From the NCBI GenBank assembly GCA_965195225.1, contig CBDAFL010000085.1, forward strand, positions 82,120 to 146,119: 64,000 nt of DNA, written 5' to 3'. A program made the position numbers and the translations under genes. The stretch is from an uncultured Thermoguttaceae bacterium. Lineage in GTDB: Bacteria; Planctomycetota; Planctomycetia; Pirellulales; Thermoguttaceae. The notes beneath the pieces were generated by a model, which was not told the DNA's origin, ran no database searches, and was given only the letters and a program-made list of their open reading frames with translations. This document shows, piece after piece, positions 2,945 through 9,964 of this stretch (the stretch's first letter is position 1; the number at the start of each line of letters is the position of its first letter).

Positions 2945-3079
2945 GGGTGCATTCCGCACTTTGCAGGGCCGTTCACGGCCCTTGTCTGCCGTAGGCGGAA
3001 ATACCCGTAAACGGGCATGAGAATATTCCATCACTTGTCAAATCGACGGGGCATACATTGCAAAGTGCGGAATGCACCC
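2945..3079. repeat. 21-bp perfect inverted repeat enclosing 93 nt with two nested hairpins
   Basis: Arms GGGTGCATTCCGCACTTTGCA (2945-2965) and TGCAAAGTGCGGAATGCACCC (3059-3079) were read directly. Inner hairpins are GGGCC/GGCCC (2966-2981) and CCCGT/ACGGG (3004-3015). The element starts 4 nt after the uup stop codon. Confidence 0.8.
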
Positions 3080-3441
3080 CTTCGCCCGGCGGCGGGTCGG
3101 CCAGATTATTCCCAACCCCTTGGCACTATTTTCTCATGAAAAATCGCGTTCCGTGACAGCCTGGGCTGCTTGTTGCCCTGTGATGGAAGGGGTAAGATGT
3201 TCGGCGCGGGTGTCAGCCGTGGACACAAAGGTAAAGAGTCAAGGGGGCGGGAGCAATCCTGTTCGGCACGACGATTGCTTGCATTCAACAGTATCCGAGG
3301 GCGGAACCTGGGAAAGGCGTTTCCAGCAATGCCAGTGAACTGTTTCCACCAAGAAGGCGAGACTGGGTAATGTGGAAAAGATGAGCCGCCACTACTTGCG
3401 ATTAGCGGTCGAATACCCGTTGGCTGGAAGGAACTAAACTA

Positions 3442-3609
3442 CTACCGGCTATAAGCCGGTAGGTTTTGAGGGTGTTTCGTGAGCTTCGGACTGAAGTCCT
3501 CAGCCCACGATTTAGAAACATGAAAATCTTCGCCACCATCGCTGGGTTCGTTTTCTTCCTGCTGGCGAATGTACTCCGCAATCACTTCATCCGTCACATT
3601 GCCGCTGGA
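3442..3609 (-). pseudogene. C-terminal remnant of an IS200/IS605-type (Y1) TnpA transposase
   Basis: The minus-strand frame reads SSGNVTDEVIAEYIRQQEENEPSDGGEDF... This resembles the conserved TnpA C-terminus (..STVGG.P..VVKQYIENQ..). An in-frame TAA lies two codons upstream, so only about 55 codons survive. The stop codon sits inside a perfect 21-nt palindrome, CTACCGGCTATAAGCCGGTAG (3442-3462), like the subterminal hairpins of this IS family. Confidence 0.5.
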
Positions 3610-3690
3610 CGGTTAGCATAACATGCAAACGAGGAACCTAAAGGTTTCGCCTGAAGGCGAGGGATTTAGACCCATCGCAAGGACATTAAT

Positions 3691-6033
3691 ATGGCAAAAG
3701 AAATAATCGCAGAAACATATCTGGAACCCCTGCTTACAGATCCTTCAAAGATCCTCAAAGAAGCTGTGCGCCGCCGCAAGCTCTTTAACGAAAAGTCTGT
3801 CGCCGGCGATGCTATTCAAGAGCATGTGGCACAGGGCTGGCAGTTCTATCGCAAATTAAAGCGAGTTACGAAAGTCAGGAAGGAGATAGAAATTGACGAG
3901 CGCCTGGAGAACCGATTCTGGATGCTCCTCTGCAAACTGGGCTACCCCGAAGTCAGTGATGGCCGCAATTTCACGATCCTAATCAAACGAAAAGGTGCCG
4001 AGCCACTACGAAAGCAAGTTGATGTCTTCGGGAAAGATGATGAAACGGTAATAGTTGCGGAGTGCAAAGCATCTCAGAAGCTGACGAAACGAAGCCTTCA
4101 GAAGGACATCGAGGAGTTCGCTAACCTAAAGCGCCCAATTGCAAATGCAATCCGAAAACACTATGGTGCAGAACTGAAACTGAAAATCATTTGGCTCTTC
4201 GTTACAGAGAACATCATCTGGTCCTCGCCCGACAAGCAGAGAGCCTTGGGGGAGAACATACGGGTTATTACAGAGAGAGAGTTGAGGTACTACGCGCAGA
4301 TCGCCGAGCACCTCGGCAAAGCCGCTCGTTACCAGTTCTTGGCAGAGTTTTTGAAAGACCAGAAAATTCCAGAGCTTTCCAACATGATGGTTGCGGCAAT
4401 CAAGGGGCGGCTCGGCGGGAGGCACTTTTTCTGCTTTGTGACAACGCCTCGGCATCTCCTCAAGATTTCATTTGTTAACCATCGGTCGTTGAATGACCCC
4501 GAAGGAGTGCCTACATACCAACGACTCGTCAGTCGTTCGCGGATGCGTGACATAGGCAAATTCATACGGGCAGAAGGATACTTCCCAAATAATCTGATCG
4601 TCAATTTCACTCATAAAGTTCGCTTTGAGAAGATAGCGGGACACGAAAACACGAGTGTTGTGTTTGGGAATCTGTACCTACCGGACAGATATCGGTCTGC
4701 GTGGATAATCGACGGGCAGCACCGCCTCTACGGGTTCTCACGCATTGAGGATAAGTACCTTGATCAGAATATTGTTGTGGTGGCATTTGAAACTCTGCCA
4801 AAGGCCGAAGAAGCCAATTTGTTTGTCACGATCAATCATGAACAAAAGTCTGTTCCCAAACATCTTCTCGATGATCTTGAGGGAGAACTCAAGTGGGGCT
4901 CTTCTGTACCCAGCGAGCGCATCGGGGCGATTGCTGCACGTTTAATTAATTGTCTGAACACCGATGTTGGCGAACCCTTTTACAATCGGATTACCCAGCA
5001 GGGCATACCATCAACGAGCAAGACATGCCTCACAATACCCGCGATCAAAGAAGCACTGCGAAAATCCGGACTGCTTGGCCGCACGCTTCATAACAACACG
5101 ACGTATGACTTAGGCGCTCTCTGTGGACGAAATGACAGTGAGACACTTGATCGCGCCAGGTCAGCGCTGAATCAGTACTTCGGTCAGTTGCGAAATGCAA
5201 ACTTAACGGAATGGGAAAATGGCCGGGACGGCATCCTCTGCACGAATGTTGCGGCTCAGGCATACATCATGTTGCTGGGCGCTCTAGTGAAGTACTGGGA
5301 GGCAAACACCGCTGCAGATGCTCGCGAGATGACTGTGGAAGATACGATGCTGGAGACTGAGGAGTATCTGAAGCCGGTACTCGACTTCCTCGAAAGCAGC
5401 AATGCAGCGCAGCTGAAAACAGCGTTTCAGGTGCCATTTGGTTCTGGAGGGCCGCCCGAGTACTACTACCGGTTATGCAAAATGATAAAGGACAAGTACT
5501 CCGACTTCCGACCAGAAGGAATGGAGGAGTGGGAGGAAGAACAATCAGAAGAACGAGTACAGGACGCCGACACAAAGCTCAAGGCCATCGTATCGGAAAT
5601 CCGAAACTACATTTTTAATGTGTTTCGAGAGACCTACGGAGAGAAGAAGGATGCCTATTGGGATAAGGGGGTTTCCGACAAAACGATGAAAGCGGAGGCC
5701 TACAAACGTTCTCTTGACTATGAAGTTGATGAACGTTTGCCGCTAGAGACGTATCTCGAAGTTGTTGAAATGAAGAAGATCGTCGAGAATAAGCAAAATT
5801 GGCTACGGTTCAAGAAAGTATTCAACATCCCCGAGCCTGGAGAAAAGGGGATGTCGAAGAACCTGAAGTGGATGGATCGAATCAACGAACTGCGCCGAAT
5901 ACCTGCACATCCGGCCAGAGAGCGACGCTACAAACTTGAGGATTTTCAGTACATCGACTTCGTCAATAATGAGTTGATAACCCGACTGAAGGAAGCGCGG
6001 GAACATCCCGAGCGCGAGGATGGCAATGACTGA
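3691..6033 (+). CDS. DGQHR-domain (DndB-like, ParB-fold) protein with N-terminal PD-(D/E)xK-like nuclease motif and C-terminal HEPN-like motif
   Basis: 780-aa ORF with AAGGA 8 nt upstream of the ATG. The core carries YQRLVSRSR, FPNNLIVNF, IIDGQHRLYG (nt 4711-4725) and LFVTINHEQKSV, matching the DndB/DGQHR pattern. The N-terminus has VDVFGKDDETVIVAECKAS (D111...E124-x-K126). The C-terminus has NELRRIPAH (R735-x4-H740). GC is clearly lower than in the flanks. Confidence 0.85.
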   Translation: MAKEIIAETYLEPLLTDPSKILKEAVRRRKLFNEKSVAGDAIQEHVAQGWQFYRKLKRVTKVRKEIEIDERLENRFWMLLCKLGYPEVSDGRNFTILIKRKGAEPLRKQVDVFGKDDETVIVAECKASQKLTKRSLQKDIEEFANLKRPIANAIRKHYGAELKLKIIWLFVTENIIWSSPDKQRALGENIRVITERELRYYAQIAEHLGKAARYQFLAEFLKDQKIPELSNMMVAAIKGRLGGRHFFCFVTTPRHLLKISFVNHRSLNDPEGVPTYQRLVSRSRMRDIGKFIRAEGYFPNNLIVNFTHKVRFEKIAGHENTSVVFGNLYLPDRYRSAWIIDGQHRLYGFSRIEDKYLDQNIVVVAFETLPKAEEANLFVTINHEQKSVPKHLLDDLEGELKWGSSVPSERIGAIAARLINCLNTDVGEPFYNRITQQGIPSTSKTCLTIPAIKEALRKSGLLGRTLHNNTTYDLGALCGRNDSETLDRARSALNQYFGQLRNANLTEWENGRDGILCTNVAAQAYIMLLGALVKYWEANTAADAREMTVEDTMLETEEYLKPVLDFLESSNAAQLKTAFQVPFGSGGPPEYYYRLCKMIKDKYSDFRPEGMEEWEEEQSEERVQDADTKLKAIVSEIRNYIFNVFRETYGEKKDAYWDKGVSDKTMKAEAYKRSLDYEVDERLPLETYLEVVEMKKIVENKQNWLRFKKVFNIPEPGEKGMSKNLKWMDRINELRRIPAHPARERRYKLEDFQYIDFVNNELITRLKEAREHPEREDGND

Positions 6034-6895
6034 GCCATTCCTTAAGTGGCCCGGAGGCAAGAGGTGGCTCGTTCAACGATACGCTACGCTCTTTCCGACA
6101 ACATATCGCCGCTATTTCGAGCCGTTCCTCGGCGGTGGAGCGGTATTTTTTTACCTCTCGCCCCCTCGTACCGTACTATCGGATTCCAATCCTGATCTGA
6201 TTAACGCCTATAAATGTATCCGCGATTATCCAGATATCATCGACAGACGCCTCCGCAGCCTGCATGCGCATCACGATAGCAGGCTCTACTATCGAATGCG
6301 TGCAATGAAGCCGAGAAGCGATATCGGAAGAGCGAGTCGCTTCATCTATCTGAATCGCACGTGCTTTAACGGAATATACAGGGTGAATCGACAAGGCGAG
6401 TTCAATGTGCCTATGGGTTCGAAGGATCTTGTCAAGTATCCTGATGGTTATTTGTCATTGATCTCAGAGCGCCTCGGGAGCGCTTCGATCAAGGTGGGCG
6501 ACTTTGAAGATACAATAGACTCTTCAGGCAAAGGTGACTTTGTGTTTGTTGACCCGCCATATACGGTAATGCACAACAACAACAATTTCATTAAGTACAA
6601 TTCCAAATTGTTCTCTTGGACTGATCAGATTCGATTAGCATCAGCATTGAGGCGTGCCGTTTCTCGGGGTGCCAAAATCATGCTTTCGAACGCGGATCAC
6701 ATTAGCGTTAGAACCCTTTACTGCAAATTTGGCTACCATCACAAGGTTGATCGTTCGAGCGTTCTCGCGGCTGAGTCGGCCAGACGCTTGAGGACATCTG
6801 AACTCTTGATAACGACATACAAGACACCTAGGGAGAAAGTGACAAAAGTCGAAACGGAGACGAAAAGTCGGAAGTCGAAACGAGAACGCAGCTAG
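6020..6895 (+). CDS. Dam-family (D12 class) N6-adenine DNA methyltransferase
   Basis: FLKWPGGKRW, EPFLGGGAVFF (FxGxG SAM motif), SNPDLINAY, YLNRTCFNGIYRVNRQGEFNVP and FVDPPYT (DPPY catalytic motif) are collinear with E. coli Dam. The ATG at 6020 lies 14 nt inside the upstream ORF (stop 6031-6033). Confidence 0.9.
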   Translation: MAMTEPFLKWPGGKRWLVQRYATLFPTTYRRYFEPFLGGGAVFFYLSPPRTVLSDSNPDLINAYKCIRDYPDIIDRRLRSLHAHHDSRLYYRMRAMKPRSDIGRASRFIYLNRTCFNGIYRVNRQGEFNVPMGSKDLVKYPDGYLSLISERLGSASIKVGDFEDTIDSSGKGDFVFVDPPYTVMHNNNNFIKYNSKLFSWTDQIRLASALRRAVSRGAKIMLSNADHISVRTLYCKFGYHHKVDRSSVLAAESARRLRTSELLITTYKTPREKVTKVETETKSRKSKRERS

Positions 6896-6985
6896 TTGTC
6901 GCATCCTCACTTGCCAATACTAGGCTTTGTCGGAAAACCTCGACGGTCATCCCGAGCGAGGCGGAGTATCTCGCCGATTCGGACG

Positions 6986-7044
6986 GGGGGCACTGACGAA
7001 AGGGGCTGAGGTTGGGCGCCACTGGCTTTGCCAGTGCTTTGGGC
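6986..7044 (+). repeat. About 59-bp repeat, copy A1 (contains a GCCACTGG...CCAGTGC hairpin)
   Basis: GGGGGCACTGACGAAAGGGGCTGAGGTTGGGCGCCACTGGCTTTGCCAGTGCTTTGGGC is similar, with about 10 mismatches by eye, to 7949-8008 in the same orientation. Confidence 0.7.
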
Positions 7045-7142
7045 TTGTTTGACGTTCCCACGTGTTTTGGTGGAAGTGGGGGGATGGCGCAGTGAGAGGC
7101 AGTAGGCTGGAGGCTGTAGGACTGGAGACAGTGCCGCGATGG

Positions 7143-7203
7143 GATAGCCCGAAGGGCTTGTGGTAGGACAGCCCGGGGTTGCCGCTTGAGCGGCTACCCC
7201 GGG
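7143..7203 (-). repeat. Composite REP-like element, copy B1 (inverted)
   Basis: Its reverse complement matches the B2/B3 pattern: a CCCGGGGTAGCCGC-TCAA-GCGGCAACCCCGGG palindrome followed by an AGCCCTTCGGGCT hairpin. Confidence 0.7.
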
Positions 7204-7301
7204 TGAACGGGTTTGCCGTAACATCTTACTCCGAAGGGGTTGCGGAATGGCGTCGTCGCTCCGCAACCCTTTCAGGGTTGAACAAATCATTGCCCCCGCA
7301 C

Positions 7302-7358
7302 CCCAGGGTAGCCGCTCAAGCGTCAACCCTGGGCTATCATATCGAAGCCCTTCGGGCT
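7302..7358 (+). repeat. Composite REP-like element, copy B2
   Basis: CCCAGGGTAGCCGCTCAAGCGTCAACCCTGGG followed by CTATCATATCGAAGCCCTTCGGGCT. The second half is identical to B3. The first palindrome is partly degenerate. Confidence 0.75.
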
Positions 7359-7516
7359 AAAGCTGGAGGCTGGAGGGACGTGCAACGGGTTGCCCTCGCT
7401 TGCTACCAGTTGACTGTAGCCAATCCACCCGATAGAATGACGGGTTCGCAGTGGAGCAGCCTGAACATGGTGTTTCGGGTAACGCTGCAGGACACTCTTT
7501 TTGAGGAATTGGACAA

Positions 7517-7714
7517 ATGGCAGAAGGCACGATAAAGCGACTCACGGACAAGGGCTTTGGATTTATCGACACCGGGAGCGAAACGGACATGTTTTTTCAC
7601 TCGTCAAACCTCGAAGGAGTGAGCTACGAAGAACTCCAAGAAGGACAACGAGTGTCATACACCGAAGGACGTGGACCGAAAGGGCCAAGAGCCGAAAACG
7701 TCAAGCCGGTCTGA
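7517..7714 (+). CDS. Cold-shock domain protein (CspA family)
   Basis: 65 aa. GTIKRLTDKGFGFI (RNP-1-like KGFGFI) and DMFFHSS (RNP-2-like) are typical of bacterial cold-shock proteins. Confidence 0.9.
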   Translation: MAEGTIKRLTDKGFGFIDTGSETDMFFHSSNLEGVSYEELQEGQRVSYTEGRGPKGPRAENVKPV

Positions 7715-7832: not shown

Positions 7833-7889
7833 CCCAGGGTAGCCGCTTGAGCGGCTACCCTGGGCTATCATATCGAAGCCCTTCGGGCT
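7833..7889 (+). repeat. Composite REP-like element, copy B3
   Basis: Perfect palindrome CCCAGGGTAGCCGC-TTGA-GCGGCTACCCTGGG followed by CTATCATATCGAAGCCCTTCGGGCT. Confidence 0.8.
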
Positions 7890-8167: not shown

Positions 8168-9964
8168 ATGAAACATATTCGGAACTTTTGCATTATCGCC
8201 CATATTGACCATGGCAAGTCGACTCTGGCCGATCGACTGATCCAGGCCTGTGGCGGCGTTGCGCAACGCGATTTTCGCAATCAACTGCTCGACGCGATGG
8301 ATATCGAGCGTGAACGGGGTATTACGATTAAGAGTAATTCGATCACGCTCTCCTACCGTGCCCCGGACGGTCAAGACTATCTGCTGAATCTCATCGACAC
8401 CCCTGGCCATGTCGATTTTTCGCACGAAGTACGGCGTTCACTCATGGCTTGCGAAGGCGCCTTGATTGTTATAGACGCTTCTCAGGGGGTCGAGGCGCAG
8501 ACGGTCGCCAACCTCTATCTGGCCCTGGATAATAATCTGGAGCTTCTGCCGGTGATCAATAAGATCGATCTGTCGGCCGCGGACGTCGAGCGTGTGCGCG
8601 AGGAGATTGATGCGGATTTGGGGCTGGATCCGTTCGAGGCGATACCCGTTTCCGCAAAGACCGGCCTCGGCGTTGAAGACGTGCTCGCGGGAATCGTCGA
8701 GAAGTTGCCTTGTCCAAAGGGCGACCCGGACGCGCCGCTGAAAGCCTTGGTCTTCGACGCTCATTTCGATCAGTATCGAGGGGTGATTCTCCAGTGTCGC
8801 ATCATGGAAGGCACGCTGAAACCACGCGACACAATCCATTTCATGCACATGGGCTGCGATTATACGGTGGAGGAGTTGGGCTTCAATCAGTTGAGGCTCA
8901 ATCCAAAAGAGCAGCTCGGCGCCGGGGAGGTGGGGTATATCGTCGCCGGAATCAAGAGCGTACGGGAGATCGAGATCGGCGATACGATCACTCACCTCGA
9001 TCGCCAAGCGGCGGAACCGGTCCCAGGCTATCAGGAAGCGAAACAGGTCGTCTTTTCCTCGATCTATCCGATGAACACCAATCAGTACAAGGACCTCAGC
9101 AAGGCTCTGGACAAACTGGCAATCAACGATGCGGCGCTCACCTATGAAAAAGATAGTTCGGCGGCCCTTGGTTTCGGATTTCGTTGCGGGTTTCTCGGCC
9201 TTCTTCACCTGGACGTGGTTCAGGAGCGTTTGCAGCGGGAATTCGACATCGGACTGGTCATCTCGGCCCCATCGGTAAAGTACAAGGTGACCTTGAAGGG
9301 CGGCAAGACGATAGATGTAGACAACCCCAGCTACTGGCCCGATCCGATGAAGATCGACTCGGTCACCGAGCCATACATTAAGACCTCTATTCTTACCCCC
9401 GAAGTGTACGTCGGTCCCGTCATGGAGCTATGCCGCGAACATCGCTCGGAGAGTCAGACGATAAATTATCTCTCCGTGGGCCGGGTCGAAGTGATTAGCG
9501 AGATGCCGCTCGGAGAGGTGCTCTTCGATTTCTACGGCAAGCTCAAGACGATCACACGAGGCTACGGATCGTTTGACTATGATCCGATCGAATATCGAGA
9601 CACCGACGTTGTGAAGGTCGATATCCTGGTCAACAAGGAGCCGGTCGATACGCTTTCCTATCTGGTCCATCGCGACAAGGCGCGAAAACGGGCGCTTCAC
9701 TACTGCGAACAACTTGCCGAAGCGATTCCCCGCCACCAGTTCAAGATTCCGGTCCAGGGCGTCATCGGCGGCACGATCATCGCCCGATCGACGATCCAGC
9801 CTTACCGCAAGGACGTAACCGCAAAGTGCTATGGCGGCGACGTTACACGTAAGAACAAGCTCCTCGACAAACAGAAGAAGGGCAAGGCGAAAATGAAGCA
9901 GGTCGGCCAGGTCCAGATACCCCAAAAAGCCTTCGTCTCGGTCCTTTGCGCCGACAGGGATTAG
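8168..9964 (+). CDS. lepA: Elongation factor 4 (LepA)
   Basis: IRNFCIIAHIDHGKSTLADRL, DTPGHVDF and NKIDL GTPase motifs. 598 aa. Characteristic LepA C-terminus (...KCYGGDVTRKNKLLDKQKKGK). Confidence 0.95.
   Translation: MKHIRNFCIIAHIDHGKSTLADRLIQACGGVAQRDFRNQLLDAMDIERERGITIKSNSITLSYRAPDGQDYLLNLIDTPGHVDFSHEVRRSLMACEGALIVIDASQGVEAQTVANLYLALDNNLELLPVINKIDLSAADVERVREEIDADLGLDPFEAIPVSAKTGLGVEDVLAGIVEKLPCPKGDPDAPLKALVFDAHFDQYRGVILQCRIMEGTLKPRDTIHFMHMGCDYTVEELGFNQLRLNPKEQLGAGEVGYIVAGIKSVREIEIGDTITHLDRQAAEPVPGYQEAKQVVFSSIYPMNTNQYKDLSKALDKLAINDAALTYEKDSSAALGFGFRCGFLGLLHLDVVQERLQREFDIGLVISAPSVKYKVTLKGGKTIDVDNPSYWPDPMKIDSVTEPYIKTSILTPEVYVGPVMELCREHRSESQTINYLSVGRVEVISEMPLGEVLFDFYGKLKTITRGYGSFDYDPIEYRDTDVVKVDILVNKEPVDTLSYLVHRDKARKRALHYCEQLAEAIPRHQFKIPVQGVIGGTIIARSTIQPYRKDVTAKCYGGDVTRKNKLLDKQKKGKAKMKQVGQVQIPQKAFVSVLCADRD

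Follow-up and report, generated by a model that had tools for sequence, protein, structure and literature searches.

A candidate two-gene restriction-modification-like module joining a three-domain DGQHR protein to an N6-adenine DNA methyltransferase

The fusion of HEPN and ParB domains to nucleases, and the linkage of such proteins to restriction-modification (R-M), constitute a recognized theme (PMC3632139; PMC3710099), which includes general remarks on ParB-like COG1479/DndB proteins fused to nucleases and HEPN domains (PMC3632139). The proteins DndB and DpdB have a DGQHR ParB/Srx-like domain in common, and are tied to a DNA-modifying enzyme. GmrSD, BrxU and SspE, which are Type IV enzymes or phosphorothioate sensors, possess a DGQQR-type DUF262 domain and a DUF1524 His-Me (HNH) nuclease, and display no pairing with a methylase. 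In this work, we analyzed a stretch of 64,000 nucleotides (nt) of contig CBDAFL010000085.1 from an uncultured Thermoguttaceae bacterium (assembly GCA_965195225.1; positions 82,120 to 146,119 of the forward strand), hereafter the window, which carries two overlapping genes encoding a 780-amino-acid (aa) protein with a DGQHR domain and an adenine methylase of the Dam type.

We favor, with moderate confidence, the reading that this pair constitutes a self-contained, mobile, two-gene R-M-like module with a nucleotide-gated multi-nuclease effector. The observations that carry this reading are the obligate linkage of the large gene to three types of N6-methyladenine (m6A) methylases, the domain architecture of the large protein, its conserved residues, the coupling of the two genes and their mobility signature, which are presented below together with the points that weigh against it, the competing explanations, and the resemblance to described systems.

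The gene pair and its distribution

The two open reading frames (ORFs), and all the motifs that a preliminary description of the locus had quoted from the letters alone, were recovered in the coordinates and translations (Table 1): the large protein contains YQRLVSRSR (aa 276-284), IIDGQHRLYG (aa 339-348) and LFVTINHEQKSV (aa 377-388), and the methylase contains FLKWPGGK, EPFLGGGAVF, EFNVP and VDPPY. The TGA stop codon of the large gene occupies positions 6031-6033, which results in a 14-nt overlap if the methylase begins at the ATG at 6020, and in an 8-nt overlap if it begins at a second in-frame ATG at 6026. The latter is probably the true start, because a Shine-Dalgarno-like GAGG lies 6 nt upstream, the methylase is called from this second ATG (289 aa, 8-nt overlap) on an identical public contig (L083), and 8 nt is the commonest overlap class among homologous pairs; the overlap is real whichever ATG is used. 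As also described previously, the pair lies in a stretch of low GC content, with values of 0.48-0.51 at approximately positions 3000-7000, compared with upstream values of 0.61-0.64 and downstream values of 0.53-0.62; overall, ~4 kb of 49-50% GC lie within a housekeeping region of ~60-62% GC.

More than 2,500 homologues of the large protein were found in a 90%-clustered database, the top 120 being full-length with 67-86% identity, and the closest named relative belongs to a metagenome-assembled genome of Planctomycetota (L002, 82% identity). Among representatives clustered at 50% identity, 663 matched at E<=1e-30 and at least 150 fell below 1e-100, most of these with lengths of 750-790 aa. A pattern scan across a collection with a single genome for each species yielded 299 confirmed loci, from which 80 were fetched, covering more than 10 phyla that include Planctomycetota, Acidobacteriota, Verrucomicrobiota, Desulfobacterota and Actinomycetota, as well as Alpha-, Beta- and Gammaproteobacteria, and others. 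Candidates among cultured carriers are Luteimonas aquatica RIB1-20, Stenotrophomonas daejeonensis JCM 16244, Lysobacter cavernae KCTC 42875, Gordonibacter sp. 28C, Polaromonas sp. A23 and Mesorhizobium marinum.

A Dam-like methylase was present at 69 of the 80 loci, directly downstream and on the same strand in nearly all of them; the exceptions are one locus with the methylase upstream (L051) and one decayed locus in which it is inverted (L054). At six further loci another m6A methylase adjoins the large gene, either a long D12 variant (L063, L069 and L077) or an MT-A70 enzyme (L075, L078 and L079), the latter inverted in the decayed L079. Since three loci offered no room downstream, 77 were informative, and 75 of these displayed an m6A methylase beside the large gene; co-localization in unrelated genomes, the key test set out in the preliminary description, was thus observed, usually with overlapping genes. 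An overlap was found in 43 of 57 measured pairs, mostly of 4 or 8 nt, and 12 more pairs were separated by no more than 30 nt. The change of methylase type with mostly preserved gene order is the pattern classically expected of a modification partner that serves a constant restriction or effector component.

Clustering of all flanking ORFs at the 80 loci revealed no third conserved gene, and neither dnd genes nor a tRNA-guanine-transglycosylase-like gene were found among the conserved neighbors. Similarity at the DNA level to the closest loci covers only positions 3688-6826 of the window, the flanks being unrelated, and the GC content of the cassette was lower than that of its flanks in 48 of 50 loci, with a mean difference of 0.10. 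Decayed copies were also identified (L045, L054 and L079). Judged from these sequence comparisons, the pair is a horizontally mobile two-gene cassette.

Some loci deviate from the two-gene layout. Four-gene variants (L009, 7974-12946; L010, 7974-11798; L037, 7992-12893; L045, 1759-6711) consist of the large DGQHR gene, the Dam-like methylase, a conserved protein of about 200 aa without a family match, and a second, short DGQHR protein (about 380 aa) that resembles the model 'phosphorothioation-associated DGQHR protein 1' (180 bits, cut-off 450). In the decayed L054 (5401-8468), the large gene breaks off at about aa 478-513, an HNH_2-endonuclease ORF comes next, and what remains of the methylase gene is inverted.

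Domains and conserved residues of the two proteins

The methylase matched TIGR00571 Dam (3.4e-69, 233.5 bits, cut-off 114.85), Pfam PF02086 MethyltransfD12 (1.5e-50, 172.7 bits, cut-off 22) and the PADLOC model MTase_II PDLC03266 (6.8e-90), and its best match in the PDB was DpnM (2dpm, 1.3e-57), which methylates GATC in the DpnII system, followed by EcoDam (1.2e-31). By its profile scores, which exceed the cut-offs, and by the presence of motif I and DPPY, it belongs to the Dam family of D12-class N6-adenine DNA methyltransferases. Besides DPPY, an FxGxG-type motif I (EPFLGGGA here) and the motif [FW]NG[LI]YRVN/NVP are conserved across the partner methylases. In EcoDam, residues K9, N120, L122, R124 and P134 read GATC (PMC4417163); the equivalents of K9, N120, R124 and P134 are retained in the methylase, with replacement of L122 by I, Y119 by F and Y138 by K, and the enzyme is likely specific for GATC.

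Conservation in the large protein was assessed on an alignment of 69 full-length homologues reaching down to 29% identity. Its central region matched TIGR03187 DGQHR (5e-47, 160.9 bits, cut-off 58.85) and Pfam DndB (2e-13, aa 235-390). The scores against more specific models were 87.1 bits for DpdB NF041060 (cut-off 300; model E 1e-24), a domain-level 8.8e-26 for PADLOC DpdB, and 87.8 bits for the DndB-associated equivalog TIGR04172 (cut-off 450). In addition to the DGQHR pentapeptide, residues Y276, R278, R284, F378, N382 and Q385 are invariant. The ParB core was poorly modeled in the full-length AlphaFold2 (AF2) prediction, several segments having a predicted local distance difference test score (pLDDT) <50.

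The region of aa ~60-200 was predicted with a pLDDT of ~78, and its Foldseek comparison with the PDB retrieved Cdn1 (9u49, 1.1e-4), VC1899 (1xmx, 3e-4), Can2 (7bdv), Card1 (6xl1), AF1548 (1y88) and McrC (6hz4), with E values from 1e-4 to 6e-2 overall and a Foldseek probability of 1.00 for Cdn1, VC1899, Can2 and Card1 (E 1e-4 to 1e-2); matches to Pfam Card1_endonuc were sub-threshold (E=0.11 and 0.023). According to its modeled fold, the N-terminal domain is a member of the PD-(D/E)xK superfamily with a D...ExK site, and a predicted nuclease. The candidate catalytic residues D111, E124 and K126, already singled out in the preliminary description, fall within this domain, where D111 and E124-x-K126 are located on adjacent predicted strands. 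D111 is present in 66/69 homologues, E124 in 64/69, K126 in 59/69 (otherwise R, T or V) and C125 in 69/69, the complete D...ExK being intact in 57/69. In a sister clade of the family, described below, the site reads E-C-T or E-C-R and is followed, two positions further, by a basic residue.

The C-terminal region (aa 533-780) was modeled with a pLDDT of 86.8, and its all-helical part (aa ~640-771) is a probable Swt1-like HEPN domain, an assignment based on profile matches in the sister clade and on motif invariance. Full-length sister-clade homologues match PF18731 HEPN_Swt1 at the same position, the best being P0206 (1.9e-6, 28.6 bits, gathering threshold 27.5) and the others ranging from 7e-6 to 8e-4. 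W727, N732, R735 and H740 are unchanged in all members of the alignment; thus R735 and H740, also singled out previously, are invariant and lie within the domain that matches HEPN_Swt1 in the sister clade. Overall, the universally constrained sites are those of the ParB-like and HEPN-like domains, and the endonuclease site is usually, not always, intact. By sequence, profiles of the large protein built from 17 and 40 sequences gave no significant match to the PDB.

Table 1. Coordinates of the gene pair, its domains and motifs, neighboring features of the window and sister-clade loci.
Feature	Position	Strand	Basis
Large gene (780-aa three-domain protein, candidate effector)	3691..6033	+	ORF with ATG start
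Dam/DpnM-like N6-adenine DNA methyltransferase gene	6020..6895 (probable start 6026)	+	ORF, 291 aa, profile matches
Predicted restriction-endonuclease-fold domain, aa ~60-200	3868..4290	+	Foldseek of AF2 model
Candidate catalytic D111 ... E124-C125-K126	4021..4068	+	Homologue alignment
DGQHR (ParB/Srx-like) domain, aa 236-532	4396..5286	+	TIGR03187, Pfam DndB
DGQHR pentapeptide, aa 341-345	4711..4725	+	Invariant in 69/69 full-length homologues, including those of 29-30% identity
All-helical domain, aa ~640-771, probable Swt1-like HEPN	5608..6003	+	Sister-clade PF18731 matches
R735-R-I-P-A-H740, Rx4H motif	5893..5910	+	Invariant
GAGG Shine-Dalgarno-like sequence	6016..6019	+	Within 3' end of large gene, 6 nt before ATG 6026
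Methylase DPPY catalytic motif, aa 178-181	6551..6562	+	xDPPY in 58/58 aligned partner methylases
Low-GC stretch with only these two genes	3000..7100	.	GC and DNA-similarity limits
Nested inverted repeat arms	7145-7159/7345-7359; 7164-7203/7302-7341; 7228-7246/7260-7278
cspA	7517-7714		Housekeeping neighbor
lepA	8168-9964		Housekeeping neighbor
Sister-clade loci	L081 5013-11511; L082 4887-11591; L084 7001-12644; L085 7001-15425; L086 7001-12633

Proposed mechanism and competing explanations

In the scheme that we favor, the DpnM/Dam-like methylase would mark the host DNA at adenine N6, most probably in GATC, thereby serving as the putative self-protection component, and the 780-aa protein would be the effector, its DGQHR ParB-like domain binding a nucleotide triphosphate and acting as a switch. 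The restriction-endonuclease-fold domain would bind unmarked DNA and, in most members, cut it, and the invariant HEPN domain would contribute an RNase activity, be it as a backup line of defence or as the principal source of toxicity. The methylase starts within the 3' end of the effector gene, and this translational coupling would tie the production of the methylase to that of the effector. The nucleotide-gating step is supported by the finding that a DndB-like DGQHR protein binds ATP and GTP (bioRxiv 10.1101/2025.10.10.680097).

Several results weigh against this scheme. Six methylase-linked, full-length homologues from different lineages (L046, L049, L064, L065, L066 and L070) have lost D111 or E124, the site reading, for example, D..MCR, S..FCK or D..KCV, and keep DGQHR and R735/H740; therefore, DNA cleavage by that domain is not universally needed, the endonuclease active site seems dispensable in some lineages, and restriction activity may not reside only, or mainly, in the PD-(D/E)xK domain. 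Two intact large genes (L041, 7992-10328; L074, 3658-6009) have no methylase within 8 kb, so the effector may not be lethal alone, or the methylase may be located elsewhere in those genomes. Pairwise identities of effector and methylase are only moderately correlated (r=0.42). Regarding the specificity of the mark, K at the position of EcoDam Y138 makes recognition of the first base pair uncertain; the window shows no depletion of GATC (observed/expected 0.95), a value that is uninformative rather than negative. For the HEPN assignment, no Pfam match at E<=10 was obtained with C-terminal fragments, whether from the window protein or from two distant homologues, and Foldseek of the C-terminal model gave nothing significant, Csm6 ranking second at E=1.4. 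Finally, the preliminary description had seen the typical context of mobile defence genes, and this was not borne out: the window is of housekeeping character, and the 148 immediate neighbor ORFs of the homologues are mostly housekeeping genes by Pfam rather than parts of defence islands, with scattered matches to defence models (one CBASS, PDC-S15, SoFic and ThsA-like protein) and no demonstrated enrichment. As for the surroundings of the two large genes lacking a methylase, L041 has a Fic-domain gene directly upstream and a Glu/Gln-tRNA-synthetase-like gene downstream, and L074 has a UvrB gene downstream.

The invariance of the HEPN and DGQHR motifs next to an endonuclease motif that is sometimes lost, together with the two intact large genes without a nearby methylase, would also suit a modification-licensed surveillance like that of SspABCD-SspE, which we consider unlikely. 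There, the effector would need the host m6A marks, read through its DNA-binding and ParB-like domains, to become active and then attack invader nucleic acid or cellular RNA, methylation being a licence and not a shield; known ParB-like proteins of the DGQHR/DUF262 kind either cooperate with a modification module, as DndB and DpdB do, or have modified DNA as their target or signal (SspE, GmrSD, BrxU). However, the tight translational coupling and the repeated swaps of methylase type within the same gene order fit a protective partner at least equally well, and no sequence feature marks an m6A reader domain. Selfish addiction is a known behavior of Type II R-M systems, and the pair could be primarily an addiction cassette, loss of the cassette diluting the methylation so that a long-lived effector kills the cell, with phage defence being incidental. 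This is consistent with a minimal mobile unit of constant low-GC signature and non-conserved flanks, with its patchy occurrence across phyla and with the decayed copies. Such behavior does not exclude defence, however, and both the seven full-length copies in predicted viral contigs and the presence of the sister clade on conjugative elements, where defence or exclusion functions are common, argue against it as the primary role, which we regard as rather improbable.

We give still less credence to the large protein regulating or assisting the methylase in the manner of DndB, a role in which its nuclease-like domains would be degenerate and it would control, for epigenetic ends, how much adenine is methylated or where. 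The DGQHR protein DndB was reported to repress the dnd operon in an ATP-modulated manner (PMC4507180), DpdB, an ATPase, assists an enzyme that modifies DNA, and the PD-(D/E)xK residues are lost in some members. Nevertheless, the large protein is twice the size of DndB, maintains an invariant Rx4H and, in most homologues, the D...ExK site, and falls far short of the cut-offs of the DndB-associated and DpdB equivalog models; furthermore, its pairing with three unrelated methylase types is hard to square with a specific cofactor role, and the mobility signature is atypical of housekeeping epigenetic regulators. Going further than the R-M-like module that we favor, it is conceivable, as a tentative proposal, that the large protein is a single-polypeptide immune effector whose ParB-type switch scans DNA for the host mark and triggers both DNase and HEPN RNase, thus combining restriction and abortive infection in one protein, and that different clades plug this scaffold into different marking modules. 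The marking modules would include m6A methylases of the three types and, in the case of the conjugative elements, a set composed of a radical S-adenosylmethionine (SAM) enzyme, a GHKL ATPase and a short DGQHR protein, which might introduce a DNA modification not yet described.

If the module operates as an R-M-like system, it would add a widespread member to these systems, with at least 299 loci when each species is represented by a single genome, and with near-full-length matches in more than 150 protein clusters at 50% identity. Its restriction component would be a combination known from no characterized enzyme, uniting a ParB-like nucleotide switch with an endonuclease fold of the Card1/Can2 type and with a HEPN domain. 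It would then offer a tractable two-gene model of how ParB/DGQHR domains, as in DndB and DpdB, couple nucleotide binding to the reading of modifications, of how a single protein integrates effectors that act on DNA and on RNA, and of the reasons for which certain systems linked to methylases go undetected in screens based on E. coli. Should the mark be GATC, phages propagated in dam+ E. coli would already be protected, and standard screens in E. coli would miss the system.

Genomic surroundings and relation to known systems

The surroundings of the pair in the window are of housekeeping nature, including an RCC1-repeat PEP-CTERM protein, an ABC-F ATPase, a DEAD-box helicase and a pyruvate:ferredoxin oxidoreductase, besides cspA and lepA. 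As previously noted, Dnd, Ssp and Type I/III genes are absent from the other ORFs of the window, among the best 25 of 52 families listed. Neither a tRNA nor an Rfam RNA was found beside the pair or at the borders of the low-GC island, and neither a transposase or integrase adjoining the pair nor direct repeats flanking the cassette were detected. An insertion sequence (IS) remnant had been reported adjacent to the pair; the interval 6895-7517 contains no transposase and no other Pfam match, only nested inverted repeats and a palindrome similar to repetitive extragenic palindromes (REP), and the IS remnant was rejected. This REP-like palindrome, GGGTAGCCGCTCAAGCGGCTACCC, underlies a nested inverted repeat of ~215 nt (7145-7359), which is probably what was taken for the IS remnant, and has a further copy at 7837-7860; the nested repeat follows the methylase stop and precedes a sigma-70-like promoter (7410-7438), itself located upstream of cspA. 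On its upstream side, the low-GC stretch is bordered, directly after the ABC-F stop, by a perfect inverted repeat with arms of 21 nt (2945-2965 / 3059-3079) and a loop of 93 nt. A 33-codon hydrophobic ORF (3520-3621; MKIFATIAGFVFFLLANVLRNHFIRHIAAGRLA), 70 nt upstream of the large gene, is conserved in no related locus and is probably spurious. In keeping with a planctomycete-like host, the window also encodes the RCC1-repeat protein with its PEP-CTERM anchor and a DUF1571 protein (14-1000 and elsewhere).

A phage origin of the pair was also considered and rejected, with only domain-level matches in 50,697 phage records and 7 full-length matches in 2.9 million IMG/VR contigs. The sister clade shares the three-domain layout at 29-30% identity, the homologue on pNL1 (L081) having 30% identity over aa 2-759. 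Its members are linked not to a methylase but to a radical SAM protein of ~540 aa (542 aa) and a GHKL (HATPase_c_3) ATPase, in some cases joined by a short DGQHR protein, and are located on conjugative plasmids or integrative elements, such as the conjugative plasmid pNL1 of Novosphingobium aromaticivorans (L081) and a locus among type IV secretion system genes (L084); L082 lies on a non-mobilizable Agrobacterium plasmid. Judging by its radical SAM partner and its occurrence on conjugative elements, the sister clade may represent a separate system, undescribed and unexplored, that perhaps installs another DNA modification.

Searches of profiles and of PADLOC-DB v2.0.0 assigned the pair to no named or candidate system matched by both proteins, in agreement with the preliminary description: the large protein matched DpdB only, at the domain level, and the methylase matched the generic MTase_II and orphan-methylase models, with weak matches to PD-Lambda-5_B and mad2 and none for a partner of these. 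No description of the pair was found in the literature searched on DGQHR, DndB-like and ParB/HEPN/Dam combinations. The earlier description of the module as a candidate undescribed one agrees with the literature searched as far as the pair is concerned, and must be qualified for the ParB-HEPN combination, since a table of Anantharaman et al. (2013) lists Saro_3948 as a ParB+HEPN (Swt1-like) fusion, 'mostly active' (PMC3710099). This protein appears to be the sister-clade member on pNL1 (L081), which belongs to the same superfamily and whose C-terminus matches HEPN_Swt1; the entry is confined to the table, with no N-terminal endonuclease domain, methylase partnership or system-level description. 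As far as its sequence indicates, the pair would be an R-M-like system of a known general kind, for which no earlier description of the two genes together was found.

Among the described systems, DpnII-type Type II R-M resembles the pair in its DpnM-related methylase and in the compact operon with a nuclease-fold protein, and the presumed shared logic is a methylation-based discrimination between self and non-self. Here, however, the partner is not an endonuclease of the DpnII, MboI or Sau3AI families but a three-domain protein of 780 aa; no known Type II restriction endonuclease family was found beside the methylase, the large protein matching DndB/DGQHR models (Pfam, NCBIfam) and, in PADLOC, DpdB only. 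The predicted nucleotide dependence and RNase output would also be foreign to classical Type II systems. Compared with DndB and DpdB, with which it shares the DGQHR domain and the tie to a DNA-modifying enzyme, the large protein is twice as long, carries additional nuclease-fold and HEPN-like domains, and lies in a window where dndCDE, dndFGH and dpdA were not found among the families listed. With GmrSD, BrxU and SspE the pair shares the principle of a ParB-like nucleotide-binding domain fused to a nuclease in modification-based immunity; in the large protein, neither DUF262 nor DUF1524 gave a Pfam match at E<=1, and in place of their DGQQR-HNH arrangement it displays a DGQHR motif, predicted PD-(D/E)xK and HEPN domains, and linkage to an m6A methylase.

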